Assembly (NCBI GenBank): GCA_047602405.1
Contig: JASGHJ010000002.1
Coordinates: 2,848,001-2,912,000 of the forward strand
Length of the DNA: 64,000 nt
Direction: 5' to 3'
From: Anaeromyxobacteraceae bacterium
GTDB taxonomy: Bacteria > Myxococcota > Myxococcia > Myxococcales > Anaeromyxobacteraceae
Each line of letters begins with the position of its first letter. Positions within the stretch are counted from its first letter, which is position 1. Below, piece after piece: positions 31,128-60,808 of the stretch. A program made the position numbers and the translations under genes. The notes beneath the pieces were generated by a model. The model searched no databases and was not told the DNA's origin. It saw nothing but the letters and a program-made list of their open reading frames with translations.

Positions 31128-31694
31128 TCACTTGATCTTGAAGCCGTCGGCCTTCGATCGGCCCTTGTCGAGCTCCTTCTCGACCTGGGCGAGGAGCTCC
31201 TTGAACTTCGCGTTCTGCGGCTCGTACATGAGGGCCGAGCGGAGCTGGCGGGCGGCGGCGTCCCAGCGGCCGGCCTGCACCTCGGTCACCGCGGAGGCGT
31301 AGAACTTCCGGCCGTTCGGGGTGGTGCCGTACTGCTCCTCGACCCGCTTCTTCGCCTGCTCCTTCACCTGGGCCTCCTCGGCCTCGGTGAAGCGGAGCTT
31401 CTTCGCGCGGTCGGGCCCCGTGACGTCGGCGAGGTACCGGGTGCGCTTCTGGTCGTCGCGCAGCACCGTGTACGCCTCGTTCACGCGCCGGTAGATCCTG
31501 CCGACCACCTCCCGCAGCTCCGCCGACGGGTGCGCGGCGAAGCGGTCGGGGTGGAAGGCGCGCGACTCGCGGTAGTACGCCTTCTTGATCTCGGCGGGCG
31601 TGGCCGAGTGCGGGATCTTGAGGACGTTGTAGTAGTCGAGCTGGTCGAGGACGGTCGCCAGGGTCTCGGCCTCGATGAGGAACTGCGCTTCCAT
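31128..31694 (-). CDS. J-domain (DnaJ-type) protein with TPR-like C-terminus
   Basis: DYYNVL...IKKAYY...FHPD...VNEAY.VL.D. Confidence 0.92.
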   Translation of the reverse strand: MEAQFLIEAETLATVLDQLDYYNVLKIPHSATPAEIKKAYYRESRAFHPDRFAAHPSAELREVVGRIYRRVNEAYTVLRDDQKRTRYLADVTGPDRAKKLRFTEAEEAQVKEQAKKRVEEQYGTTPNGRKFYASAVTEVQAGRWDAAARQLRSALMYEPQNAKFKELLAQVEKELDKGRSKADGFKIK

Positions 31695-31718
31695 GGTGTC
31701 GGTGCGCGGCGGGCGCGC

Positions 31719-33332
31719 CTAGGCGGCCCGCACGTCCTTGGCGAGCTCCATCTCGGCGTTGGCGTCGGCGGCCTTCGAGATGTCGTCCTCGGAGAGGCCG
31801 GAGGAGAGGCTGATGGTCGTGGAGGTCTTCTGGCCGGTCTCGAGGTCGGTGGCCGACACGTTCACGATGCCGTTCGAGTCGATCTCGAAGGTGACCTGGA
31901 TGGAGACCTCGCCGCGGTAGCCGACGCGGAACCCGGTGAACTCGAACTGGCCGAGGAGCTCGCACTCCTCCGCCTTGTTCGACTCGCCCTGGTAGACGCG
32001 GATGCGGACCTTGTCCTGGCCGTCGCGGCTCGTCGTGAAGGTCTTCGACTTCTCGATGGGGATGGGGGTGTTCTTGTCGATGATCTTCTCGGTGAAGCCG
32101 CCGACCGTCCCCACCCGCAGGGAGAGCGGCGTCACGTCGAGCAGGTAGCTCGCCTGGCCGTAGACCGCCGCCTCGCTGTTGAGGAGCGCCGCCGCCTGGA
32201 TCGAGGCGCCGAGGGCGACGACCTCGTCGGGGTCGATGCCGGTCATGGCCTCCTTCTGGAAGTAGTGGCGGACGCTGTTGCGGATGATGGGCAGGCGGGT
32301 CGGGCCGCCCACCAGGATCACCGCGTCGATGTCGGCGGCGGTGAGGCGGGCCGACTGGAGCGCCTCGTCGCAGACCTTGAAGGTCCGCTGCACGAGGTCC
32401 ATCACCATCCGGTTGAACTGCTCCTGCTCGAGGTGCTGGGTGAGGTCGAGCACCTGGCCCTCCGGGGCCTGGCAGATCCCCTGGACGAAGATCTCGGCCT
32501 TGCCGTGGCGGCCCACCTCGATCTTCGCGGTCTCGCCGGCCTCCTTCAGCATCTGGAGGCAGTACTTGTTCTGGCGCAGGTCGAGGCCGTGCTTCTGGAG
32601 GAAGTCGTCGGCCAGCCACGTCATGATGCGATCGTCGAAGTCGTCGCCGCCGAGGTAGGTGTCACCCGCGGTCGAGAGCACCTCGAAGACGTCCTTGCCG
32701 ATCTCGAGGATCGAGACGTCGAAGGTGCCGCCGCCGAGGTCGTACACGCAGATCTTCTGCGAGATGTCCTTGCCGAAGCCGTAGGCGAGCGCGGCGGCGG
32801 TGGGCTCGTTGATGATGCGGAGCACCTCGAGCCCGGCGATCCGGCCGGCGTCCTTGGTGGCCTGGCGCTGGTTGTCGTTGAAGTAGGCGGGGCAGGTGAC
32901 GACCGCCTTCCTCACCTCGCGGCCGAGCGCCGTCTCGGCGATCGCCTTCATCTCCTTGAGGACGAGCGCGGAGATCTCCGGGACCGCGAAGCTCTTCCCC
33001 TTCACCTGGACCCGGACCGAGTTGTTCGGGCCCTCGACGATGCCGTACGGCATCACCGCCTGCGCCTTCTTCACCTCGTCGGAGAAGAAGAAGCGGCCGA
33101 TGAGGCGCTTCGCCGAGTAGACGGTGTTCTCGGCGTTCGTGATGATGTTCTTCTTGGCGTTGTTGCCGACGAGGACCGTGCCGTCCTCGAGGAACGACAC
33201 GCAGGAGGCGTGGGTCCGCTCGGCCCACTCGTTGAGCAGCACCTGGGGCGGCGCGCCCGCCTCCGTGACGGCGGCGACGCAGCTGTAGCTCGTACCGAGG
33301 TCGATGCCGATCGCGATGCCGTCGTCGCTCAT
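31719..33332 (-). CDS. Hsp70/DnaK-family chaperone lacking the C-terminal lid region
   Basis: [46 protein letters not shown]; about 537 aa. Confidence 0.95.
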
Positions 33333-33509
33333 GAGGTCGGTGGGTGATGGCGTGGTGAGCCAGCGATCACGCCGGTTTAGGGATCCTAGCGGCCGGGTCT
33401 CGACCCTGTCAAACACGTGGCCGCGCCTTCGTTCGCCCGACGGTGCGTGCGCGCCCGTGGGATGGCCCTGTCACCCCGATCCGTTATTACATTCGGACCT
33501 GGGAGAACC

Positions 33510-36418: not shown

Positions 36419-41737
<5,319 letters not shown>

Positions 41738-42540: not shown

Positions 42541-43113
42541 TTACTCGACCACCCAGATCATCTCCCACCTGCGGCCCTCGCGGGCCGCAGGCACGGAGAG
42601 GATCACGTCCTGGAGCTGGCGGCGGGCGCAGTCGACCGCGCCGGGGTCCTCGGGGGGCGGCACGGGGACGCCCGCCGGGAACTCCTTCGGATCGTGCGCC
42701 GTGCCCTTCACCTCGACGACGCGCACCCGGCGGTCGAGCGACTCGAAGCCCAGGAGCAGCTCGGCGTGGAGGAGCCGGCACGGGCGCACGCGGTCGGCGT
42801 AGGCGTGGAGCGCCTCCTGGATCTGCGCCGTCCAGGCCTGGAGCGCGGCGGCGCGCTCGCCGAGGTCGGCGGGCAGCGTCTCCTTCGCGGTGCCCTCCCC
42901 GGGCTCCCTCGGCTTCGGGGGCGCCTCCCGCGGCGGCGGCGGGGGGCTGGCGTTCGGCAGCACGATTTGCGGCAGCGGCGCGGGTGCCGCGGCCTCGGGC
43001 GCCGGCGCGGCGCCGGGTCCCTTCACCGGCCCCTCGAGCGACAGCACGAGCCACACTCCGCCCGCGGCGAGGAGCACGATCCCTGCGAGGCCGGCGAGGA
43101 GCCCCTTCCTCAC
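42541..43113 (-). CDS. Hypothetical membrane-anchored protein with Pro-rich linker (TonB-C/AgmX-like architecture)
   Basis: N-terminal [14 protein letters not shown] linker, C-terminal domain with two Cys; GTGA overlap with the ptsG stop. Confidence 0.65.
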
Positions 43114-44958
43114 GTCGCCTTGACCGCCTCGGCCAGCCTGTCGGCGTGCTCACCCACGATGAGGTGGAGGATACCAGGTCCGGCCTGCATCACCGCCATG
43201 ACGCCCGCGCCGCGGGCGCCCGGCTCGTCGAACCGGCCGGGGTCCGCGAGCACGACGCGCAGGCGCGTGAGCGCGACGGCATCGAGCGAGCGCAGGTTCT
43301 CGCGGCCGCCGAGGGCGCGAAGGAGCGGCGGAGCCGCCTCGGCGACCCAGGCGTCCGCGCCGGCCGCCGCGGCGGCGAGGCCCGGCCCCGGCGCCGGCAG
43401 GGAAGCCGGAGCGGGCGGAGCGGCCGCTTGCGCCGCCCCGTCCGCCTCGGCCCCCGCAGAGGCCGCAGTCGACGCGAGGTAGAGCTGCATGTCGGTCTTC
43501 AGGTTCTCCGACACCGGCCCGAAGATCGCCTGCACCCCGTTCCCGATGACGACCACGCCGGTGGCGCCGAGCGCCTTGAGGCGCGCCTGGTCCACCCGGG
43601 CCGGGTCGGCCACCGTGATGCGCAGGCGGGTGATGCAGGCGTCGAGGGCCTTCAGGTTCGGGCGGCCGCCGAACGCGAGCACGAGGTCGCGCGCCTTCGA
43701 GGAGCCGGCGGAGGTGGCGGCGTGGGCGGCCTGCGCGACCGGCGCGTCCTCGCGGCCCGGGGTCTTGAGGTCGAGCCAGCGGATCGCCGCGCGGAACGTG
43801 ACGTAGTAGATGCCCGCGTAGATCGGCCCGAACACCAGCACGAGCCACCACTTCTGCGAGAACGGGTTGAGGACGTTGAAGACGACGAAGTCGATCCCGC
43901 CCTGGGAGAAGGTGAAGCCCATGTGCACGCCGAGCGTCGCGAACAGGAACTGGGCGGTCGCGACGAGGAGCGCGTGCACGAGGTAGAGCTGCGGCGCCAC
44001 GAACAGGAACGCGAACTCGATGGGCTCGGTGATGCCGGTGAGGAACGAGGTCAGCGCGGCCGAGATCATCATGCCGCCGACGGCGGTGCGGTGCTCGGGC
44101 TTCGCCGAGTGCCAGATGGCGATCGCGGCGGCGGGCAGGCCCCACATCTTGAAGAGGAAGGCGCCGCCGAGGATGCCGGCGGTCGGGTCCCCGGAGAAGT
44201 AGCGCTGGATGTCGCCCGTGACGGTCTTGCCGGTCACCGGATTGACGAAGCTGCCGATCTCGTAGAAGAACGGCGCGTTCCAGATGTGGTGGAGCCCGAA
44301 GGGCACCAGCATGCGCTCCACGAAGCCGTAGAGCGTCGCCGCGAGGCGCGGGTCGCCGACCGCGGCCCAGTGGGAGAAGACGTTGATGCCGCGCCCGATG
44401 GGCGGCCAGACCACCGCGAGCACGAGGCCGAGCCCGATGGCCGAGAGCGCGGTGATGATGGGCACGAAGCGCTTGCCGGCGAAGAAGGCCAGGTAGGGCG
44501 GCAGCGAGATCCGGTAGAAGCGGTTGAACATCCACGCCGCGAGCGCGCCGGCGAGGATGCCGCCGAACACCCCGGTCTGCATGGACTTGATGCCCATGAT
44601 GGTGGCCGGCGGGATGCCCCACACCCCGGCCAGCACGCCCATGGTCGCGAGCATGACCGTGTAGCCGATCATCGCGGCGATGGCCGAGACGCCGTCGTTC
44701 TCGGTGAACCCGAGCGCGACCGCGATGGCGAAGATGAGCGGCATGTTGCCGAACACCACGTCGCCGCTCATGCGCATCAGGTCGGAGACGACCTGCGGCA
44801 TCCAGTGGAAGTTCGCCGCGCCGATGCCGAGGAGCAGGCCCGCGACCGGCAGCACCGCCACCGGCAGCATGAGGGACTTGCCGATTCTTCTGCAGGAACC
44901 CGAACGCGCCGGTGAGCGCGCCCTCCCCCGCCGGAGCCGCCGCCGCCGTCGTCGTCAT
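43110..44958 (-). CDS. ptsG: PTS glucose-family permease EIIC-EIIB plus a second EIIB-like domain (apparent frameshift near 44885)
   Basis: FGFLQK then [45 protein letters not shown]. Confidence 0.9.
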
Positions 44959-47504
44959 GTGAGCACCTTGGTCGCGGTGGCCGCGCCGGACTCGTCGAAC
45001 TGCACGAGCGCCTGGCGGACCTCCGCCGTGGTCCTGCAGCGCAGCACCTCGGTCGCGAGCTCGGAGCACTCCGAGAGCCGGTGCCGCGAGATGGCGGCCT
45101 TCACCGGCGCGATGGAGGGCACGCTCACCGACAGCTCGTCGAGGCCGAGGCCCACGAGGAGCGGGACGGCCAGCGCCTCGGAGGCGAGCCCGCCGCAGAC
45201 CCCCACCCACTTCCCCTGCTCGTGGGCGCCCTCGACCGTCATCGCCATCATCCGCAGCACGGCCGGGTGGAGCGCGTCGGCCTGGCGGGCGAGCCGGGGG
45301 TGCCCGCGGTCCATCGCGAGCGTGTACTGGGTGAGGTCGTTCGTGCCGATGGAGAAGAAGTCCACCTCGCGCGCGAGCTGCTCGACGATCACCGCGGCCG
45401 AGGGGACCTCGACCATGATGCCGACCTTCACGGCGCGGGGGATGGCCTGCTGCTCCTCGGCGAGGAGCGCCTTCGCCTGGCGCAGCTCCTCGAGCGTCGC
45501 CACCATCGGGAACATGAGGTGCAGGTTCCCGGCCGGCGCCGCGCGCAGGATGGCGCGGAGCTGGACCCGGAAGACGTCCGGATAGGCGAGGCTGACCCGG
45601 ATGCCGCGCAGGCCCAGGAAGGGGTTCTGCTCCCTCGGCAGCGGCATGTACGAGAGCGGCTTGTCGCCGCCCACGTCGAGGGTCCGCACGATGAAGCGGC
45701 GGTCGCGGCCCAGCGCCTCGGCCATCGCGCCGTACTCGGCGGCCTGCTCGTCCTCGCCCGGCGCCACGTCGCGGTCGGCGAAGAGGAGCTCGGTGCGGAG
45801 CAGCCCCACGCCCTCGGCGCCGGAGGCGAGCGCGGCCTTCACGTCCTCGAGCGTCGCCACGTTCGCGGCGACCTCGATGCGGTGGCCGTCCCGCGTGCGC
45901 GCGGGCTGCCCTGCGGCGGCCGCCTCCTGCTCGCGCCGCGCGGCCTGGTCGGCGATGCGCTGCCTCACCGCGATGACGTGCCCCTCGTCCGGGCTCACCT
46001 TCACGAGGCCGATGGCGCCGTCGATGACGACCCTCAGGCCGTTCGGCAGGCTGAGCGCGTGCTCCTCGATGCCGCACACCGCCGGGATGCCCATCGAGCG
46101 GGCGAGGATCGCCACGTGGCTCGTCGAGCCGCCGGTGGTCGTGCAGAAGCCGAGCACGACCTTCGGGTCGAGGGCGGCCACCTCGGAGGGGGTGAGCTCG
46201 TCGGAGATCAGGATTGACCCGGGCGGGATCTCCGCCTGCGCGGTCGCCGCGCCGGTGAGGAGCCCGAGGAGCCGCCCGCCAACGTCGCGGAGGTCCGCCG
46301 CGCGCTCGCGCATCAGCGCGTTCTCGAGCTGCTCGAGCTTCGCCGCCTGGCCGGTGTACGCCTCGCGCCAGGCGAAGGCGGCGCTCTTGCCCTCGGCGAG
46401 GTGCCGCTCGGTGGTCTCGATGAGGTCCGGGTCCTCGAGCAGCGCGAGCTGCACGTCCAGGATCGCGGCCTTGCCGGGGTCGGCGGCGTGGCGCTCGAGC
46501 GCGTCGATCTGCCGGGCCGCCTCGCGGACCGCGGCGGCGTACCGGGCGCGCTCCTCGTCGGGCGTGCCGCCGCGCTCTTCGACCGCGATGGCGGCGTGGC
46601 GGCGCTGGAACACCTTGCCGATGGCGAGCCCCGGCGACGCGGGCGCGCCGACGAGCTCGTTCGAGCCGCTCGGCGCGACCCGCGGGACCGGCGCGCGGCG
46701 CGCCTCGGGGGCGACCGGCGCGTCCGACGCCTTCTCCCCGAGGCCGTGGGCGACCTGGGCGGCGAGGTGGGCGACCGCCGCGGCGGCGTCGGGGCCGGTG
46801 GCCTCGAAGACCACCTGCTCGCCCTGCTGGGCCGAGAGCCCCATGATCGCGACGACCGACTTCGCGTTCACCCGGTCGGCGCCGCGCACGAGGGTGACCG
46901 ACGACTGGTACTTCTTCGCCTCGCCCGCGAGCACCGCGGCGGGCCGGGCGTGGAGGCCGACCCGGTTCGGGATCGCCACCGGGGCAGACCGCACCGTCTC
47001 GCCGGACACGCTGGCCGCGCGCGCCTGGGCGCCGCCGAGCTCCACGGTGAGGAGCACCGAGCGGCCCGCCTCGACGAGGCCCCTGGCGGCCTCGAGGCGG
47101 CTGACGCGCTCGACGTTCGTGACCACGACCTCGGTGAGCAGGCTGCGGGCGGTGCGGGCGATGGCGTCGAGGTCGAGGCGCAGCACCGGCTGGCCGCGCT
47201 CGACGTGGTCGCCGAGGGCGACGAGCGGGGTGAACCCCCGCCCGGCCAGGGTGACCGTGTCGAGGCCGACGTGGACCAGGACCTCGACCCCGGCCGCGCT
47301 CGTGATGGCGAGCGCGTGGTGGGCGGAGTGGAGCTGGGTCACGTCACCGGTGATCGGGGCGAGCACCTCGGCAGAGGTGGGGTCGATCGCCGCCCCGTCG
47401 CCGACCATCTTCCGCGCGAAGACGGGATTGGGCACCGAGTCCAGCGGCACGACCACGCCGGACAGCGGGGCGACGATCTCGATCCTCGTTGGTGATCCCG
47501 ACAT
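44955..47504 (-). CDS. Multiphosphoryl transfer protein: EIIA(Glc)-HPr-Enzyme I fusion
   Basis: VLVHVGLDTV (EIIA), GLHARPA and NAKS (HPr), TSHVAILARS, GLLRTE, RTLDVGGDK, SIGTNDLTQY (EI). Confidence 0.94.
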   Translation of the reverse strand: MSGSPTRIEIVAPLSGVVVPLDSVPNPVFARKMVGDGAAIDPTSAEVLAPITGDVTQLHSAHHALAITSAAGVEVLVHVGLDTVTLAGRGFTPLVALGDHVERGQPVLRLDLDAIARTARSLLTEVVVTNVERVSRLEAARGLVEAGRSVLLTVELGGAQARAASVSGETVRSAPVAIPNRVGLHARPAAVLAGEAKKYQSSVTLVRGADRVNAKSVVAIMGLSAQQGEQVVFEATGPDAAAAVAHLAAQVAHGLGEKASDAPVAPEARRAPVPRVAPSGSNELVGAPASPGLAIGKVFQRRHAAIAVEERGGTPDEERARYAAAVREAARQIDALERHAADPGKAAILDVQLALLEDPDLIETTERHLAEGKSAAFAWREAYTGQAAKLEQLENALMRERAADLRDVGGRLLGLLTGAATAQAEIPPGSILISDELTPSEVAALDPKVVLGFCTTTGGSTSHVAILARSMGIPAVCGIEEHALSLPNGLRVVIDGAIGLVKVSPDEGHVIAVRQRIADQAARREQEAAAAGQPARTRDGHRIEVAANVATLEDVKAALASGAEGVGLLRTELLFADRDVAPGEDEQAAEYGAMAEALGRDRRFIVRTLDVGGDKPLSYMPLPREQNPFLGLRGIRVSLAYPDVFRVQLRAILRAAPAGNLHLMFPMVATLEELRQAKALLAEEQQAIPRAVKVGIMVEVPSAAVIVEQLAREVDFFSIGTNDLTQYTLAMDRGHPRLARQADALHPAVLRMMAMTVEGAHEQGKWVGVCGGLASEALAVPLLVGLGLDELSVSVPSIAPVKAAISRHRLSECSELATEVLRCRTTAEVRQALVQFDESGAATATKVLT

Positions 47505-47599
47505 GGCCACGCTCACTTGCCGTCAACGCCCGGCTCGAAACCCTACCCAACCGCCCTGCCCCACACCAGCCCTCGCCGCGGGGGGCCCCCGCGAGACGA

Positions 47600-48781
47600 T
47601 CACCGGAAGTCGTAGCGGAGCCGCACCCGGAAGGACGTCAGGTCGTTCTCCCAGGCGGTGTTCGCGTCGACGTCCTGGAGCTGCGCGCGGCTGAAGCCCA
47701 CGACCGCCTTCACCGAGAGCCCCTCGATCGGCAGCTTGTACTGCGCGGCCACGAACGCCTGGTGGTGCTTGTCGTGGTCGCCCTTCTTGAGGTCGTCCTG
47801 GGTGAAGTGGTAGCCGCCGCCCAGCAGGAGGTCGCCGATCCAGCCCTCGGCGAAGCCGCCGAAGGTCTTGCCGTCGAGCGTCTTGTTCGCGTCGACGAGG
47901 CCGTCGATCTGGGTCGCGTCCACCGACATGAGCGTCGCGTTGGCGCCGACGGTCACGTTCGCGATGCGGTACTGGAGCCGGCCCGAGAAGCCCTTCGTGG
48001 TCTGCTCGACCTTGTTGTTGTCGGCCTGCGGCGACTCCTTGAAGTACTCGTAGCCGCCGACGAAGGTGAAGCCATACCCGCGCAGGGCGAGCACCGGCCG
48101 GATGCCGAGCTTGTTCTGCTCGGACTGCTGGCCGTAGACGCCGCCGAGCTCGAGGGCGGCCCACTCCGCCGGGTACCAGTGCGCGGCGAGCTGGCTGGGC
48201 TCGTCCATGTAGCCGAGCGCGGACTCCAGGCGGTGCATCGGCGGGCCGCCGAGCGCACCGGCCTCCTCGGCCGCGTACCGGTCGAAGCCCATGCCGCGGT
48301 AGTACGGCTCCCAGCCCAGGAACCGGCCCACCTGCACGTCCCAGGTCCGCTGGCCGATGCGCAGGAAGGCGTCCTGCGTGTGGGGCTCGTACTGGGACTT
48401 CGTGAACTCGTTGTCCATCGCCACGAACTGGGCCCGGGCCTCGGCGAAGAGCGCGCCGAGCTCGCGGCGGTACTGCACGCCGAGCACGAGGCGGCCCTGC
48501 CCGTAGTTCGCGCCCTGGTCGTAGGCGCCGGACTGCGTGTTGTTACGGGAGAGGTAGCCGACGTCGTACCAGGTGTAGCCGGACAGCCGGAGCGGCCCGG
48601 ACGGCGCCCAGGTCGGCACGGTGTACGAGTCGGTCTCCTCGCCCGGCCGGCCGGCCTCGCCGCCCCAGAAGGTGATGCGGGGGTCGGTGACGACCGGCGC
48701 GGCGGCGGGCTCCTCGGCGCGGACGGCCGGGGCGGCGAGCAGGACGGCCAGCGCGGCGGCCCACGTGATCTTGGCGTTCAT
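47600..48781 (-). CDS. Putative outer-membrane beta-barrel (porin-like)
   Basis: Signal peptide; alternating beta strands; C-terminal FRVRLRYDFR. Confidence 0.7.
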   Translation of the reverse strand: MNAKITWAAALAVLLAAPAVRAEEPAAAPVVTDPRITFWGGEAGRPGEETDSYTVPTWAPSGPLRLSGYTWYDVGYLSRNNTQSGAYDQGANYGQGRLVLGVQYRRELGALFAEARAQFVAMDNEFTKSQYEPHTQDAFLRIGQRTWDVQVGRFLGWEPYYRGMGFDRYAAEEAGALGGPPMHRLESALGYMDEPSQLAAHWYPAEWAALELGGVYGQQSEQNKLGIRPVLALRGYGFTFVGGYEYFKESPQADNNKVEQTTKGFSGRLQYRIANVTVGANATLMSVDATQIDGLVDANKTLDGKTFGGFAEGWIGDLLLGGGYHFTQDDLKKGDHDKHHQAFVAAQYKLPIEGLSVKAVVGFSRAQLQDVDANTAWENDLTSFRVRLRYDFR

Positions 48782-51139: not shown

Positions 51140-53743
51140 CTAGAAGCTGTTGGTCTGGATGCCGAAGCCGCGGACGAGGGTCGCGTCCTGGCCGTCACCC
51201 GCGACGTCCGGGAGCTGCGAGCCAGCGGTCGCGTCGGAGGCCGGGAGGCCCACCGGCAGCTTGCCGCGGCCGTTCACGATGCCGAACGCGACGTCCATGG
51301 CGACCTTGTCGGAGTGCTGGTTGGCCGGGAGGATCCCCATCCAGTCGATGTAGAGGCCGCTGATCCCGAGGGCCGCGGCCTGGAGCTCGCTCACGACGAG
51401 CGGCCGGCCCGCGTCGACGAACACGACGATCTGTGCCTGCGAGGCGGGGCCGCCGCCGGAGTTCGTCGCCCACCAGGTGATGGCGTCGCGCGCCTCCTGG
51501 ACCGGCGCCAGGACGGTCGCGTCCGTGGCGCCGTAGGTGAGCGCCGGCGTCGGGAGGCTGAGCGCGCCCGCGTCGGAGTCCGCCGCGAAAGGCGCCGCGA
51601 TGCGGACGAGGACGTAGTCGGAGAGCGCGAGCCGCTGCTTGCGGGCGACCACCGGGTCCGAGGAGATGGTGAATTCCTTCACCTTCGGGGCGTCGTTGTT
51701 CATCGTCCCGTAGCCGGCGGACACCGAGCGCACGTAGTCGAGGTCGAAGTCGCCGGAGATGAAGTAGTCGCAGCCCGCAGCGACGTACGGCTCGCCCGGA
51801 GGCGCCGGGAGCACCTTCATCGTCCCGTTGCCCGCGTTGCCCTTGTCGCCCGTCTGGTGCCCGTCGCCCTTCAGCGGATCGCCGTTCAGCCAGCCCGCAG
51901 GCTTGTCCTTGTTGACGAGCAGCACCATGCCGCGGTTCATCGCGTCGAGGCCGGCCTGGAAGGCCGTGTCGGCGCCGACGAGCGTGGGCGCCAGCGCGGC
52001 GTCGACGTACGGGTTCTCGAACAGGCCGAGCTGGAACGTCACGGCGAGCACGTGGGTGGCCGCCGCCGTCACCTGGGCGTCGGACAGCCCGGCCGCGGCG
52101 AGGTCGGTGGTCGCGTTGACGCCGAGGAACTGGTCGACCCCCGCGCCCACCGCCTTCGCGATGCGCTGGGCCTTCGTCGAGCCCTCCATGCCCCAGGGCG
52201 CGCCGAGCGGGGCGACGCCGGCGTCGTTGAGGATGCCCGCCGGCGCGAGCACGAGGCCGCCGAAGGAGAAGTGGTTGCGGAGGACCGAGGTGACGATCGT
52301 CGAGTTGTAGGACGAGGCGACCTGCTCGATCGTCGAGCCGTTGACCGCGCCGGAGAGCCCGGTCCACGCGCCCTGCTTCGGCACGCCGTAGCCGGTCATG
52401 ACGCCGGCCACGCCCGCGCCGAAGGCGCCCTGGAACGCGTTCACGTGGTCGTCGAACTTGGTCGAGTAGCCGTAGTACTTGCCCTTCGAGAGGCGGGCGT
52501 CGAAGCCGTCCGCGGCCGGACCCGCGCCGGGGAAGTGGCCGACGACCGCGGCGACGCCGGTCGAGGAGAGCGCGGTGCCCTGCAGGCCCTTGACCAGGGC
52601 CGCCGCCATCGCCGACACCGAGGCGGAGTCCTCGCCGAAGGTGAACTGCGAGCTCTGGAGCCGCGGGTCGGTGGCGAGATCGGCGGGGACCGAGAGCGCC
52701 ATGGTGATGCCGATGGCGCGGTACTCCTTCGCGACGATCTTGCCGTAGTTCTCGACGAGGGCGAGGTCGCCCGTGGCGCCCAGCGCGAGCTCGTTCGGCC
52801 ACTGCGTGAAGCGATTCGCCTTCACCCGGCCGTTGCCGGTCTGGTGCGCGGCCTCGCTCGAGAGGACGAACGGCACGCCCCAGGTCGCGGCCTCGGCGCG
52901 CTCCTGGATCGCGTTGGCCCAGGTCGCGCGGTTACCCACGCCGGCCGTGTTCGCGGTGGTCTGGCCGAAGCGGATGCCGGCGTCGACGATGGCGAGCGTG
53001 CCGGCGGACGGCGTGGCGCTCGAGATGGTGTCGGAGAGGGAGGCGTGGGCGAGGAGCGCGAGCTTCTGCGCGGTGGTCATGCGGGAGGCGAGGTCGGCGG
53101 CGCGAACCGCGGCGCCCTTCGTCCAGTCCTCGTAGGGCTGCAGGGCGGCGTCACCGGACGCGTCCTTGAAGTCGAGGGAGACCGAGCACTGCACGCTCGG
53201 GTCGCCCGCGACGCTCGCGAAGGTGGTGCTGGTGGTGAGCTTCGCCTTGTGGCCGGTGCCCGTGCCGACCTTGATGACCGGCTGGGCGGCGATGAGCGCG
53301 TTCTTCTTCGCGACGTTGGCGGCCTTGTCGCACTCCGCCGTCCCCGTGCCGACGCAGAGGTTGTTCGTGCAGGCCTGGCTGGCGCCGCAGTCGGCGACCT
53401 TGTGGCAGGTCGTGCCGGGGGTCGTCTCGGGGACGCAGGTGCTCGCGCTGCCGCAGTACTGCTGCGCGGGGCAGTCGGTGTGCAGCGTGCAGGTCGGAGC
53501 CGGCGCGGTGCAGACGTGGCTCTGGCAGGTCTTCGGCGAGGCGCAGTCGACCGCGCGGTTGCAGTCGACGCCCGGGTTCGGGAACGCGGTGCAGGTCCCG
53601 CTCGCCGAGCAGAACTTCTGCGCGGCGCAGTTGTCGTCCGAGGTGCACTCCGGCCCGACGGGGTCGGGGCCGCCACCACCGCCGCAGGCCGCGAGGCCCG
53701 AGAGTGCCGCCACCGCGATGAGCCAACCGAGTCTCTTCGTCAT
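51140..53743 (-). CDS. GH3-fold lipoprotein with Cys-rich stalk and degenerate catalytic motifs
   Basis: LAAC lipobox; YEDW, ADLATDPR, HFPG, LGLFENPYVD; LAPAG replaces the xDW motif. Confidence 0.85.
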   Translation of the reverse strand: MTKRLGWLIAVAALSGLAACGGGGGPDPVGPECTSDDNCAAQKFCSASGTCTAFPNPGVDCNRAVDCASPKTCQSHVCTAPAPTCTLHTDCPAQQYCGSASTCVPETTPGTTCHKVADCGASQACTNNLCVGTGTAECDKAANVAKKNALIAAQPVIKVGTGTGHKAKLTTSTTFASVAGDPSVQCSVSLDFKDASGDAALQPYEDWTKGAAVRAADLASRMTTAQKLALLAHASLSDTISSATPSAGTLAIVDAGIRFGQTTANTAGVGNRATWANAIQERAEAATWGVPFVLSSEAAHQTGNGRVKANRFTQWPNELALGATGDLALVENYGKIVAKEYRAIGITMALSVPADLATDPRLQSSQFTFGEDSASVSAMAAALVKGLQGTALSSTGVAAVVGHFPGAGPAADGFDARLSKGKYYGYSTKFDDHVNAFQGAFGAGVAGVMTGYGVPKQGAWTGLSGAVNGSTIEQVASSYNSTIVTSVLRNHFSFGGLVLAPAGILNDAGVAPLGAPWGMEGSTKAQRIAKAVGAGVDQFLGVNATTDLAAAGLSDAQVTAAATHVLAVTFQLGLFENPYVDAALAPTLVGADTAFQAGLDAMNRGMVLLVNKDKPAGWLNGDPLKGDGHQTGDKGNAGNGTMKVLPAPPGEPYVAAGCDYFISGDFDLDYVRSVSAGYGTMNNDAPKVKEFTISSDPVVARKQRLALSDYVLVRIAAPFAADSDAGALSLPTPALTYGATDATVLAPVQEARDAITWWATNSGGGPASQAQIVVFVDAGRPLVVSELQAAALGISGLYIDWMGILPANQHSDKVAMDVAFGIVNGRGKLPVGLPASDATAGSQLPDVAGDGQDATLVRGFGIQTNSF

Positions 53744-56851: not shown

Positions 56852-59647
56852 TCAGTTCGCCGGCAGGGCGATCCCGGCGCCGTTGATGTACGACGGCTGC
56901 CAGGAGTCGTTCGCCACGTCCTCGAGCTGCCCACGGACGGCCGCATCCGAGGAGGGGAGCTCCATCGGCAGGCGGGCCGAGCCGTAGGTGAAGCCGGTCG
57001 GGACGTTCTTGTTGAAGACGAAGTCCAGCACCGCGCGGTCGTAGGCGCCGAAGTCGGCGAGGAAGGCGTCCACGCCGGTGAAGGTCGCCAGCTGGTTGAT
57101 GTTCGCCTCGTCGGAGACGCTCGGGTAGGAGCCGGCCTGGCCGGCGAGCTCGTCGAGGCTCACGAGGCCGACGATGAACGGCCGGACGATGCCGGGCCGC
57201 GTCGTCTGCTGCACGAGGATGATCTTCAGGGTGGCGTTCGTCGGCAGGACCTGGGTCCCATCCGACTTCTTGTAGCCGTCGCGGGCGCGGAACGCGTCGA
57301 GCACCTTCTTCTTCGAGGCCGCCGCGGCCGCGAGGCTCCCGTCGACCTGGTTCACGAGCTGGTCGGGCGTGAGGACGCCGTCGTAGGAGAGCAGGCCCTC
57401 GAAGGTGCGGGCGGACGCGCGCGGGACGATGCGGATGATGGCGATGTCGGCCTTCGTGATGTCGGCGGTCGCCTCGACGGGCAGCGTGTAGCCCGCGACG
57501 CCGGCGGTGCCGCTGCCGGCGGCGGTGTAGTTGTAGTCGCCGAAGAGGTCGTTCACGTCGTCCTGCTTCGCCGCCTCTGCCGCCGTCGGGCCGACGATGC
57601 TGTCGAAGACGCCGTCGTAGTAGACGGTGACCTTCGCGTCGCCGTTCGTGTCGCAGTGGAACTCGCCGACGTCCGGCGCGCTCGCGGTGCCGCCCGCCTT
57701 GTCGGTGTAGCGGGTCCCGTTGATGGGCAGGTAGCGGATCGAGGACGTCGCGTGGTCCTGGTTGCGGAGCAGCACGATCGCCTTCTTCATCGTCTCGAAG
57801 CCGTCACGCCGGTCGGCCTGCGTCCGCATCGAGGTCGCGGCGTTCGCCGCCACCACGTACGGGTTCTCGAAGGCGCCCGTCTTGAACGTCATCTCGAGGA
57901 TCTTCTCGGCCGCCGCGTCGATCTCGGCCTCGCTCACGAGGCCCTGGTCGAAGGCCTGCTGGAAGGCGGTGTTCGAGTCGATGCCGAACTGGTGCGAGCC
58001 GGCGTGCAGCCACTGCGCGCCGCGCTCCGCGTAGGTCCAGTTCTCCATGTTGAAGGCCTGGCCGTTGGCCGTGTTCCAGTCGCCGGTCACCATCCCGGTG
58101 AAGCCCATGCGCTTCTTCGCGAGGCCGGTGATGAACTCGTAGGAGAAGCCCGACGGGATCTGGAGCGGGTCGTACTGGTACTGATCCTTGTAGATCGCGT
58201 AGCACGGCATGATCGCCGCCGCGCCCACGTCGAAGGCCGCCTGGAACGGGATGAAGTGCGCCTCGAGGTTGTTGCCCGGGTAGACGTTGAAGCGGCCCGG
58301 GTAGGTGTGGGCGTCCATGCCGTCGTCCTCGGCGCCGTGGCCGGGGAAGTGCTTCATGGTGGCCGCGATGCCGTTGCGGAGGTCGCCGGTCGCGCTGCCC
58401 TGGAAGCCGATCACCATCGCCTCGACGTGCTTCGAGACCGCCACCGGGTCGGAGCCGAGGACGCCGGCGATGCGGCCCCAGCGGGGCTCGGTCGCGGAGT
58501 CGGCCATGGGCCCGAGCTGCCAGCGGAGGCCGGCGGCCATGAACTCGCGGCGGACGCAGTCACCGTGACGGCGGGTGAGGTCGCGGTCGTTGATCGCGCC
58601 GAACGCGAGCGTGCTCGGCCAGTTCGTCATCAGCGTGGACTTCGAGATCGACATCGTGCCGTCGGCCGCCATGGAGGCGCTGATGGAGTGCGCCGGGTCG
58701 GCGGAGACGATCGCCGGGATGCCCAGCGGGAGCCCCTCGGCCATCGCCTGCACGTTGTTGAAGTAGGTGGCGAGCTGGGTGCCGGTGAAGCCAAAGCGCG
58801 TGAGGCCCTGCCGGTAGTTCCAGTACGCGATGTTCTGCACCGTCGAGTCGGCGAGCACGCCGTCGTTGGAGCCGTTGCCGAGCGAGCCGCCCGAGTTCAT
58901 GAGGCCGACCTTCTGCGGGACGGTCATGCGCTTCACGAGGTCGCGCGCGCGGCAGAGCGGCGAGTAGCGCCAGTCCTCGTAGCGCTCGAGGGTGGTGTTG
59001 TGGTTGAGGTCGCGGAAGTCCTTCCCGTCCACCGTGATCTTGGCCTTCTGCGTGTAGGGCACCTCGACGGCGGCGGTGGCGGTGTTGTTGTCGGCGTCGT
59101 ACGTGTACGCGACGCCGCCGGCCTTCGTGGGCTTCGCCGCGGCGAAGCCGAGCGTCGGCTGGGTGGTGGTCACCTGCGCGGCGCAGGGGTCGACCTCGGC
59201 CGGGGTGACCGGCGGGACCGCGGAGGCGATGATGCAGCCGCCGCCGTAGCACGCCCACCCGGTCGGGCAGGTGCCGGCCTGGTTCGCGGCGGAGCAGATG
59301 CTCGCGGTCGTCGCGCAGGCGCCCATGAAGCAGGTCTGGCCAGCGTCACACGTGCCGTTCGGCACGGTCGGGCTGCACGCGGCCGGGACCGAGGCCGCGA
59401 CGATGCAGCCGCCGCCGTAGCACTGGAAGCCGTTCGGGCAGCTGCCGGTCGCGTTGGTCGCGCTGCAGAGCGAGGCGGTCGCGACGCACGCGCCCTGCGA
59501 GCAGGACTGGCCGGAGGCGCACTGGCCGGTCGGGTAGGTGGGACTGCAGTCCGGGATCCGATCCACGTACTTCGTCTCGGTGTCCGTGCACGCGGCGAGG
59601 CCGGCGAGCACGAGCGAGGCGAAGAGGAGGTTCTTCGGTACGCGCAT
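56852..59647 (-). CDS. GH3 beta-glucosidase-like lipoprotein with four Cys repeats
   Basis: LAAC lipobox; FRDLN...YEDWR, TEPRWGR, MKHFPG, VTGDW. Confidence 0.92.
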   Translation of the reverse strand: MRVPKNLLFASLVLAGLAACTDTETKYVDRIPDCSPTYPTGQCASGQSCSQGACVATASLCSATNATGSCPNGFQCYGGGCIVAASVPAACSPTVPNGTCDAGQTCFMGACATTASICSAANQAGTCPTGWACYGGGCIIASAVPPVTPAEVDPCAAQVTTTQPTLGFAAAKPTKAGGVAYTYDADNNTATAAVEVPYTQKAKITVDGKDFRDLNHNTTLERYEDWRYSPLCRARDLVKRMTVPQKVGLMNSGGSLGNGSNDGVLADSTVQNIAYWNYRQGLTRFGFTGTQLATYFNNVQAMAEGLPLGIPAIVSADPAHSISASMAADGTMSISKSTLMTNWPSTLAFGAINDRDLTRRHGDCVRREFMAAGLRWQLGPMADSATEPRWGRIAGVLGSDPVAVSKHVEAMVIGFQGSATGDLRNGIAATMKHFPGHGAEDDGMDAHTYPGRFNVYPGNNLEAHFIPFQAAFDVGAAAIMPCYAIYKDQYQYDPLQIPSGFSYEFITGLAKKRMGFTGMVTGDWNTANGQAFNMENWTYAERGAQWLHAGSHQFGIDSNTAFQQAFDQGLVSEAEIDAAAEKILEMTFKTGAFENPYVVAANAATSMRTQADRRDGFETMKKAIVLLRNQDHATSSIRYLPINGTRYTDKAGGTASAPDVGEFHCDTNGDAKVTVYYDGVFDSIVGPTAAEAAKQDDVNDLFGDYNYTAAGSGTAGVAGYTLPVEATADITKADIAIIRIVPRASARTFEGLLSYDGVLTPDQLVNQVDGSLAAAAASKKKVLDAFRARDGYKKSDGTQVLPTNATLKIILVQQTTRPGIVRPFIVGLVSLDELAGQAGSYPSVSDEANINQLATFTGVDAFLADFGAYDRAVLDFVFNKNVPTGFTYGSARLPMELPSSDAAVRGQLEDVANDSWQPSYINGAGIALPAN

Positions 59648-59716: not shown

Positions 59717-59762
59717 CTTCCGGGATCTTGATCTTTCGGTTTCCGAATTTTTGGTTTCTTGC
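59717..59762 (-). promoter_or_regulatory. Conserved upstream motif, copy 2 (candidate AraC-type operator)
   Basis: Minus strand GCAAGAAACC-N14-CGAAAGATCAAGA; AT-rich patch in the divergent GH3/AraC gap. Confidence 0.6.
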
Positions 59763-59908
59763 GGTTCGGCCCGGGAAGGCTTGCTGCATCGCGTGATGGC
59801 GGAGTCTCCGGCCTCCCCGAGAGGAGCAAACGACTGCAGGTCGATCGCACCCTGCGACGGCGCTGCCTCTTGCCCGGGCACGCAAGACCCGGCTACGGTC
59901 CCGCCGGA

Positions 59909-60808
59909 ATGATCTCCCCAGGCGCCCCCGGCGCCTTCTTCGCGCGCGTCGAGCGCGGGACGCCGAGGTGCTATGCCCCGGCGGAGGGGGGCCCGCGCGG
60001 CTTCGTGCGGACCTGGAGCACCGTGGGTGCGGCGCGCTTCGCGTGCGAGCCCTGCGAGGAGCCTCAGGGGCACCTCTTGAACCACCTCGTCACGCTCCAC
60101 CTCTCCGGCGAGGCGGTGCTCGACCTCGGCCTGCCGGGGCGCGACTGGGAGAGCCACCGCGTCGCCCATCACGGCATCGGGCTGTGGCCCGCCGCGTTCG
60201 AGCACGCGGTCCGCACCCACCAGCCCGCCGACGTGCTCTTCGTCGAGCTCGCGCCCGGGTTCGTGGAGTCCGCCCTCCTCGACGCCCACGCCAGCGAGCC
60301 GGTCCTGCCGGTCGTCGGCGGCGAGGACCCGTTCGTCGAGCACGTCCTCCTCGCGCTCGCGTCGGAGGCGAAGGCCGACACGCCCACCGCCGCGGCCCGG
60401 GTCGAGAAGCTCGCCGCGGTGCTCGTCGCCCACCTCGCCGAGCACCCGCTGCGCGGGCCTCCGCCGCTCGCGCCGGCGAGCTCGCTGCCGAGCCCCAAGC
60501 TGCGCCGCGTGCTCGATCACATCTCCGGGAACCTCGACGCGGCGCTCACGCTGCAGCGGCTCGCCGAGCTCGCGGACATGGACGTCTTCCGCTTCACGCG
60601 CGCGTTCAAGCAGTCGACGGGCAGCTCCCCGCACCGGTACGTGCTCGAGGCCCGCATCGCGCGCGCGAAGGAGCTCCTCGGGAACCGCGCGCTCTCGATC
60701 ACCGACGTGGCGCTGCAGACCGGCTTCGCGACGCCGAGCCACTTCTCGGTGACGTTCCGGCGGATCACCGCCCTCACCCCGCGCGCGTTCCGCGACGGGC
60801 TGAAGTAG
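59909..60808 (+). CDS. AraC-family transcriptional regulator
   Basis: LRRVLDHI...LTLQRLAELA...FTRAFKQSTG.SP...ITDVALQTGFATPSHF...FRR. Confidence 0.93.
   Translation: MISPGAPGAFFARVERGTPRCYAPAEGGPRGFVRTWSTVGAARFACEPCEEPQGHLLNHLVTLHLSGEAVLDLGLPGRDWESHRVAHHGIGLWPAAFEHAVRTHQPADVLFVELAPGFVESALLDAHASEPVLPVVGGEDPFVEHVLLALASEAKADTPTAAARVEKLAAVLVAHLAEHPLRGPPPLAPASSLPSPKLRRVLDHISGNLDAALTLQRLAELADMDVFRFTRAFKQSTGSSPHRYVLEARIARAKELLGNRALSITDVALQTGFATPSHFSVTFRRITALTPRAFRDGLK

Follow-up and report, generated by a model that had tools for sequence, protein, structure and literature searches.

P0001, a full-length GH3-family lipoprotein encoded in a 64,000-nucleotide stretch of an Anaeromyxobacteraceae genome (contig JASGHJ010000002.1, positions 2,848,001 to 2,912,000; here called the window), has lost the catalytic residues of its family and belongs to a conserved clade that has lost them too. 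We propose, with a probability of roughly 55%, that P0001 is conserved as a noncatalytic partner subunit in a beta-glucoside module of the outer membrane and that it most likely binds the BglB-type GH3 protein encoded by the adjoining gene. The original prediction, made from the sequence alone, held that P0001 is a pseudoenzyme retained as a SusD-like binding protein or, failing that, as a scaffold. The prediction of a retained, most likely noncatalytic GH3 protein was borne out: the protein is under selection, and its gene consistently accompanies those for an intact GH3 and a barrel. The scaffold became the better supported of the two roles.

The pseudo-GH3 gene and its neighbors

The minus-strand gene order is GH3, GH3, pseudo-GH3, BglB-type GH3, barrel, EIIA-HPr-EI, and EIICB, with an AraC-family gene divergent from the rest (Table 1). 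The gaps downstream of the pseudo-GH3 gene are 12, 27, and 83 bp in succession. The barrel protein P0005 is 393 amino acids long and resembles OmpT, PorB, and chitoporin. EIICB scored above the cut-offs for TIGR02002 and PRK11089 and below that of the GlcNAc model, and GlcNAc was rejected as the PTS substrate on that account. A promoter scan of the locus returned no sigma-70 sites, and terminators were at chance level.

Table 1. Features of the pseudo-GH3 locus, in window positions
Feature	Position	Strand	Basis or remark
Glucose-specific PTS EIICB with second EIIB domain	43110..44918	minus	Start approximate; ATG-started ORF from 44870
PTS EIIA-HPr-EI fusion	44955..47516	minus	Domain matches
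Porin P0005, predicted 16-stranded	47600..48781	minus	Structure prediction and matches; no Pfam or NCBIfam family
BglB-type three-domain GH3 lipoprotein P0004	48809..51127	minus	All catalytic residues kept; 12 bp downstream of P0001
Pseudo-GH3 lipoprotein P0001, 867 aa	51140..53743	minus	Signal peptide and lipobox, Cys-rich spacer, SN243-type TIM barrel, alpha/beta second domain
Conserved domain 2 segment Lys614-Tyr653 of P0001	51785..51904	minus	Clade-specific GDKGNAGNG insertion; candidate partner surface
Asp507 of ILND	52223..52225	minus	Aligns to non-nucleophile IIND Asp of SN243, six residues past Asp415
Pro501 at catalytic nucleophile site (SN243 Asp415)	52241..52243	minus	phmmer alignment
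Arg417 at acid/base His site (SN243 His333)	52493..52495	minus	KHFPG..D-x-H motif comparison
Gly402-His403 replacing sugar-binding Lys-His	52535..52540	minus	Clade alignment
Ser364 replacing PRWxR Arg	52652..52654	minus	Clade alignment
Cys-rich repeats, DUF7107/Dickkopf_N-like	53354..53647	minus	P0001 spacer region
P0001 signal peptide through lipobox Cys20 (LAA-C20)	53684..53743	minus	Sequence and clade conservation
SN243-type GH3 lipoprotein P0002	53959..56616	minus	Sequence; catalytic motifs intact; about 32% identical to P0001
SN243-type GH3 lipoprotein P0003	56852..59695	minus	Catalytic motifs intact; ORF bound, start probably a later Met near 59647
AraC-family regulator, divergent	59759..60808	plus	Domain match

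The P0001 open reading frame is 2604 nt long, runs from ATG to TAG with a GC3 of 0.976, and contains no internal stops. The lipobox Cys column is 98% conserved in the clade, and a loose lipobox pattern was found in 89 of the 104 members that start with Met. In other clade members the Cys-rich repeat region is swapped for Gly/Asp/Thr linkers or PF18998, and the stretch in P0001 is likely a variable spacer. The TIM-barrel domain PF00933 was matched with 94 bits against a cut-off of 27, and a search of P0001 for a SusD Pfam match returned none. An AlphaFold2 model of residues 135 to 867 reached a pLDDT of 96.3 and a pTM of 0.95. The closest solved relatives by sequence were the SN243 beta-glucuronidase (PDB 7QE1) and the 9UL7 beta-glucosidase (E values of 7e-52 and 4e-60, respectively), and the same two, 9UL7 and SN243, were the top Foldseek matches of the model (E about 1e-44, query TM 0.72 to 0.75). 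Pfam and structural comparison thus place P0001 in the GH3 fold, SN243/NagZ-like subgroup. We conclude that the 867-amino-acid frame, the lipobox, and the modeled fold are intact, as originally predicted.

Catalytic positions in the pseudo-GH3 clade

To place the motifs, P0001 was aligned to SN243 with phmmer, and the alignment was ungapped around the nucleophile. Excerpts of the SN243 report (10.1101/2022.04.25.489410) describe Asp415 as the nucleophile, with D415A completely inactive; Asp331 and His333 as the acid/base dyad, with activity of H333A reduced 80-fold; and Lys318 and His319 as sugar-binding residues. P0001 reads FGGLVLAPAGIL at residues 494 to 505 (52264 to 52229), and within the alignment its GLVLAPAGILND matched GYVNSDTGIIND of SN243 without a gap, such that Pro501 lies opposite Asp415; in the AlphaFold2 model Pro501 directly follows the strand 497 to 500. 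VVGHFPG occupies residues 400 to 406, and DPRLQSSQ occupies residues 359 to 366. The three neighboring GH3 proteins keep the S/G-D-W, KH, and PRWxR motifs (VTSDW, KH, and PRWAR in P0002; VTGDW, KH, and PRWGR in P0003; VVSDW, KH, and PRWGR in P0004), and the D-x-H motif reads DSH in P0002 and DAH in P0003. In the BglB-type clade, the nucleophile was present in 119 of 120 rows and an aligned Glu in the acid/base region in all 120. All motifs named in the original prediction were found where it had placed them, and the losses of the nucleophile Asp, the Lys, and the Arg hold as Pro501, Gly402, and Ser364. The acid/base His, now Arg417, had been overlooked, and the loss is more extensive than first described.

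To determine how widely these losses are shared, a family search was conducted with residues 185 to 867 of P0001 as the query. Of 7997 candidates scored, 480 had an E value of 1e-20 or better, and the best 120 of the 480 were used. Among these 120 matches listed, 113 (query included) were 47 to 100% identical, and the other 7 were 33 to 40% identical. Named members of the clade come from Anaeromyxobacteraceae, Archangium, Myxococcota and Deltaproteobacteria bins, and one Spirochaetes bin. A barrel-domain alignment, from which seven short, overlong, or unmatched rows were excluded, comprised 112 clade and 147 outgroup rows. In an unrooted FastTree phylogeny of 259 rows, from which 10 trait columns had been removed, all 113 formed one clade nested among 146 SN243-like rows with an SH-like support of 99. 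A contig search with the single protein found one locus, a metagenome search found 80 loci at 25 to 39% identity that are apparently of the outgroup type, and the 150 best representatives included no fused form. One GH3/porin chimera, P0225, was set aside as a probable assembly or deletion artifact.

The catalytic losses were clade-wide. Position 501 was Pro in 109, Ala in 3, and Asp in 1 of the 113 listed clade members, and the nucleophile Asp was present in 145 of 147 outgroup rows. Position 417 was Arg in 104, Lys in 6, Cys in 2, and His in none of the 112 aligned members, and the acid/base His was present in 135 of 147 outgroup rows. At the sugar-binding pair, Lys was found at position 402 in 6 and Gly in 78 of the 113 listed members, with His at position 403 in 58. 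The PRWxR Arg was kept in about 2% of the clade versus 99% of outgroup rows; Trp of the same motif was kept in 106 of the 113 listed members, its replacement by Leu being private to P0001. Other −1 subsite positions also varied among the 113 (position 297 was Glu in 70 and Asp in 9; position 502 was Trp in 36). After exclusion of three degenerate sister rows, 143 motif-intact outgroup rows gave 62 columns that were at least 85% conserved, and 7 of these were lost in the clade: Arg364, Lys402, His403, His417, Asp501, and two glycines, 5 of the 7 being catalytic or in the −1 subsite. As position 501 is mostly Pro or Ala throughout the clade, its change in P0001 is neither chance nor a sequencing error.

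Some features of the site were retained. The dyad residue Asp415 of P0001 is kept and was present in 108 of 112 aligned members, Tyr452 is largely kept, and Lys420 is newly conserved in the clade (95%). The nearby Asp of ILND, which the original prediction had raised as a possible substitute nucleophile, is unlikely to serve as one, as it aligns to a separate SN243 Asp, but an acid at position 506 or 507 was found in 110 of 112 clade members. That acid is Asp in some members and Glu in others and shifts from one position to the other; in the outgroup, 88 of 143 rows likewise had an acid at 504 to 508. As an observation in its own right, the retention of this acid, Tyr452, and Asp415 runs against reading the subunit as a dead partner.

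The order of loss and the origin of the clade were also considered. The sister of the pseudo-GH3 clade is a set of three proteins that lack the dyad His and have an acidic nucleophile, which in the unrooted tree suggests that the His may have been lost first and the Asp second. P0069, the sole Asp-bearing member, was rejected as an active basal form: it is nested in the clade and has Arg at the acid/base site. A recent duplication of P0002 or P0003 was likewise rejected as the origin, both belonging to a different clade and being about 31 to 32% identical to P0001.

Across the 113 listed members, 201 columns were at least 90% conserved. To assess selection, dN/dS was calculated by the Nei-Gojobori method. 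In the closest genome pair, G232 and G315, dN/dS was 0.17 for the pseudo-GH3 gene, 0.13 for the active GH3 gene, 0.22 for the porin gene, and 0.17 for the EI gene. In nine more distant pairs it was 0.38 to 0.60, values that lie within the range of the neighbors, are inflated by saturation at a GC3 near 0.97, and are interpretable only relative to the neighboring genes. The pseudo-GH3 gene is under purifying selection similar to that of its intact neighbors across the 10 genome pairs. Clade-wide loss together with purifying selection rules out a sequencing error or a pseudogene. P0001 has an intact frame and predicted fold, is under purifying selection, and lacks the nucleophile Asp, acid/base His, −1 Lys-His, and PRWxR Arg of an active GH3, the combination that defines a pseudoenzyme. 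We conclude from these alignments that hydrolase activity has very probably been lost.

Linkage of the pseudo-GH3, GH3, and porin genes

To determine whether gene order is conserved, 401 genomes of the phylum were searched with the family profile, and two candidates per genome were scored. Profile matches occurred in 21 genomes, 14 of which contained clade members; the remaining 7 had barrel-part matches only, with outgroup-level scores. A BglB-type GH3 gene lay directly downstream of the pseudo-GH3 gene in 14 of 14 genomes, followed by the porin and EI genes in all 13 loci where the contig reaches (in G199 with frameshifts). Of the 401 genomes, 13 had a member of the BglB-type clade and 12 had the porin, and every one of these is among the 14 that carry the pseudo-GH3 gene. 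An SN243-type active GH3 gene was located upstream in all but one of 11 informative loci (10 of 11); the G340 locus lacked it. Gene order was constant over four family codes, the kin among these genomes not being independent.

The genome of the window (G000) and that of a close relative, G010, differ in a block within this locus. DNA identity was 62 to 86% between about 47.5 and 53.75 kb, as against 92 to 98% over most of the PTS genes and over the nearer upstream GH3 gene, and the breakpoints lie near 47.5 and 53.8 kb. Between the two genomes dS was 0.54 for the pseudo-GH3 gene, 0.39 for the BglB-type GH3 gene, and 0.60 for the porin gene, and it was 0.13 to 0.17 in the flanks. The exchanged block comprises exactly these three genes, which indicates that they form a module.

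Evolutionary distances of the three proteins were also correlated. Proteins were taken as pairs when their contigs had the same length. Over 47 such inferred pairs, the distance correlation between pseudo-GH3 and GH3 was 0.82 (at most 0.31 in shuffles); over 21 inferred pairs, that between pseudo-GH3 and porin was 0.50 (at most 0.35 in shuffles). Across 19 inferred triplets it was 0.72 for pseudo-GH3 and GH3, 0.41 for pseudo-GH3 and porin, and 0.49 for GH3 and porin. These correlations arise in part from common history and from adjacency and do not imply contact, and adjacency may also account for the stronger correlation with the GH3 than with the porin. Interprotein MI-APC on the 47 inferred pseudo-GH3/GH3 pairs, a low depth, gave a top z score of 8.9, within the shuffled range of 7.7 to 10.1.

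G000 also carries two further pseudo-GH3 copies (C1) in tandem between chemotaxis genes and grpE, a site that is occupied likewise in G010, and these copies have no adjoining GH3 or porin gene. They depart from the clade at 21 to 23 of 202 conserved columns (clade median, 5), and several of these departures fall in domain 2, where, for example, Gly635 is replaced by a bulky residue. The fold is therefore able to persist outside the module, which as a side observation speaks against a partner role. We conclude that the pseudo-GH3 gene is genetically linked to, and jointly inherited with, the GH3 and porin genes, as expected for a scaffold.

Proposed role and known systems

One way in which a dead enzyme could be retained in such a module is as a partner of an active one. 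Lipid-anchored GH3 proteins at the outer membrane would cut beta-glucosides or short beta-glucans to glucose, the sugar would cross the outer membrane through the porin, and the PTS would import the glucose. The dead subunit would bind the intact BglB-type GH3, holding or orienting that enzyme near the porin, and would do so through new conserved surfaces, namely, the domain 2 insertion (614 to 653), Arg306, and Trp460; Arg417 and Lys420 may fill the former pocket. New near-invariant residues of the clade are Arg272, Arg306, Arg417, Leu418, Lys420, Gly458, Trp460, and Ala500-Pro501. A variable former sugar pocket, together with invariant new surfaces, makes a scaffold or partner more plausible than a SusD-like binder, and the variability of the −1 sugar-gripping positions speaks against a dead enzyme still binding its ancestral substrate as the active enzyme did. 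Because the unlinked copies diverge in domain 2, we read segment 614 to 653 as the putative partner surface, and P0004 is likely the partner. Many GH3 enzymes function without such a partner. The linkage evidence is all genetic and would also fit a glycan binder for the same substrate.

Such a glycan-binding accessory, similar to a surface glycan-binding protein (SGBP), would use a remodeled version of the dead cleft to keep an anionic glycan, or a beta-glucan of greater length, close to the porin and the enzyme. Like an SGBP, P0001 is a predicted lipoprotein, by its lipobox, in a glycan-uptake locus; its anchor sits on a long variable spacer; and basic or aromatic residues specific to the clade line the catalytic-face loops (Arg306, 99%; Arg or Lys417; Lys420, 95%; Trp460, 96%). 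Moreover, the cleft is wide and open in the structure described in excerpts of the SN243 report (10.1101/2022.04.25.489410), and in Bacteroides utilisomes a barrel is combined with a hydrolase and a binding lipoprotein (PMC7618045). The −1 residues that grip sugar are lost or variable, however, and the barrel is a general-type porin rather than SusC, and we regard this reading as doubtful; on the same two counts the strict SusD analogy of the original prediction is not supported. P0001 might otherwise be a regulator or gate that binds the porin or the active GH3 and tunes flux or activity by glucose or oligosaccharide level. Its presence in 12 of 12 porin-bearing genomes and the unlinked copies beside grpE in G000 and G010, which hint at use outside the operon, would suit a regulator, but a domain search of P0001 detected no signaling domain and the loci already encode AraC or a PTS-kinase/sigma54 pair, making the idea unlikely.

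Alternatively, P0001 could be an enzyme with changed chemistry that acts through the acid at 506 or 507, Asp415, or the new basic residues. The near-universal presence of the acid and of Asp415 invites this reading, and in the excerpted SN243 report Arg422, beside the equivalent Asp, shifts on ligand binding, placing the loop near the cleft (10.1101/2022.04.25.489410). The acid nevertheless moves between positions and residue types and is common in the outgroup, the equivalent SN243 Asp fails to rescue D415A as far as the excerpts describe that mutant, and the nucleophile, acid/base residue, Lys, and Arg are all gone together; we consider altered catalysis very unlikely. That P0001 is a decaying, functionless duplicate is extremely improbable. 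GH3 copies do decay in this genome, where another BglB-like gene is both decatalyzed and frameshifted, but the 113 listed members with their conserved columns, a dN/dS equal to that of the neighbors, and the occurrence of the gene in every such locus found stand against decay, which purifying selection and fixed synteny refute. We conclude that a partner subunit for the adjoining BglB-type GH3 is the most probable role of P0001. As a further and tentative possibility, the locus might encode a porin-based utilisome of myxobacteria in which the pseudo-GH3 is an organizing subunit that docks the active beta-glucosidase onto a sugar porin that feeds a glucose PTS.

GH3 is a large and much-used family, and the clade proteins carry the name beta-glucosidase in their source records despite the loss of both catalytic residues. 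A conserved dead clade in a fixed gene context is a testable case of pseudoenzyme function in the bacterial envelope, and the degenerate sister proteins allow the loss of catalysis to be followed step by step. Literature searches, partly swamped by plant Gretchen Hagen 3, found no GH3 pseudoenzyme family, no porin-linked bacterial case, and no such locus, and the combination of porin and PTS through which myxobacteria and their relatives would harvest beta-glucosides is apparently undescribed.

Several known proteins bear comparison. In the GH13-like 4F2hc/rBAT transporter subunits of eukaryotes, a dead glycosidase fold is the partner subunit of a transporter, and GH18 chi-lectins, XIP inhibitors, and GH1-like Klotho are pseudoglycosidases that are likewise eukaryotic and from other GH families. 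SN243 and 9UL7 share the KHFPG-G-x6-D-x-H scaffold with P0001, in which, unlike in either enzyme, the nucleophile Asp is Pro, the acid/base His is Arg, the Lys is Gly, and the PRWxR Arg is gone, and to which a clade-specific domain 2 insertion and a lipoprotein spacer have been added. The pseudoenzymes of beetle pectin digestion, as excerpted (PMC6549527), similarly derive from a duplicated hydrolase fold kept after catalysis was lost, but they are eukaryotic and of other GH families. The SusD/SGBP utilisomes of Bacteroides, to the extent that excerpts of their description (PMC7618045) cover them, share a sugar-uptake locus in which a hydrolase and an outer-membrane barrel are encoded with a noncatalytic lipoprotein; P0001 differs in having a GH3 rather than a SusD or Ig-like fold, and the locus differs from SusCD in that a general-type porin of 16 strands, together with a glucose PTS, takes the place of the TonB-dependent SusC. 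If the complex is real, it would extend the utilisome idea past TonB-dependent transport, and a porin utilisome, if true, would parallel the SusCD utilisomes of Bacteroides without depending on TonB and would be built from an enzyme fold that has lost its activity.

Porin family and occurrence of the module

The porin encoded downstream of the BglB-type GH3 gene (P0005) represents a family of about 100 proteins with a conserved internal loop, and no Pfam or NCBIfam family was matched when P0005 was used as the query. Among the 401 genomes searched, the family was confined to the locus type that carries the pseudo-GH3 and the BglB-type GH3. A pseudo-GH3, a porin and a BglB-type GH3 (P0095, P0151 and P0460) also occurred together in one record named Spirochaetes, in which the locus tags of the porin and the BglB-type GH3 are adjacent. 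The occurrence suggests either that the module travels across phyla or that the record contains a binning error.

Regulators beside the GH3 operon

In genome G120, the GH3 operon is preceded by a fusion of PTS EIIC-EIIB to HisKA and HATPase domains and by a sigma54 response regulator, and a similar arrangement was found at three other loci (L125 in G249, L126 in G325 and L135 in G311), with the Pfam domains of the fusion read in the G120 copy only. The fusion is likely a PTS-derived sugar sensor kinase. A divergent AraC gene takes the place of the kinase/sigma54 pair in the source genome (G000) and in G005, G010, G199 and G336.

Features located in the window and in related genomes
Feature	Location	Strand
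Porin P0005	window 47600-48781	
Cys-rich protein, 1772 aa, MopE-like repeats and TIG domains	window 36419-41737	+
Putative DnaK-like gene, then putative J-domain/TPR-like gene (from translation alone)	window 31128-33416	-
EIIC-EIIB/HisKA/HATPase fusion, then sigma54 response regulator	L124:2602-6265 (G120)	
Tandem pseudo-GH3 copies P0079 and P0107	G000:C1:1004900-1009920	
Tandem pseudo-GH3 copies	G010:C3 (L131:8154-11699)	
Further BglB-clade GH3 copy	G000:C1:1261377-1263618	

Other GH3 proteins with altered catalytic residues

G000 and G010 each carry two pseudo-GH3 copies in tandem, flanked by chemotaxis genes on one side and grpE-dnaK on the other; neither a GH3 gene nor a porin gene adjoins them, and one G010 copy matched only in its C-terminal third. 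The second BglB-clade copy of G000 has Glu for the nucleophile Asp, G-Q for the K-H pair and Gln for the acid/base Glu, as well as a frameshift near residue 552. Its catalytic set was lost independently, and it is either a decaying gene or a second de-catalysed lineage.

Three proteins (P0227, P0293 and P0329) form the sister group of the pseudo-GH3 clade. All lack the dyad His and two of the three lack the K-H pair, but the nucleophile position is still Asp or Glu. The sister proteins may be intermediates or separate pseudo-enzymes.
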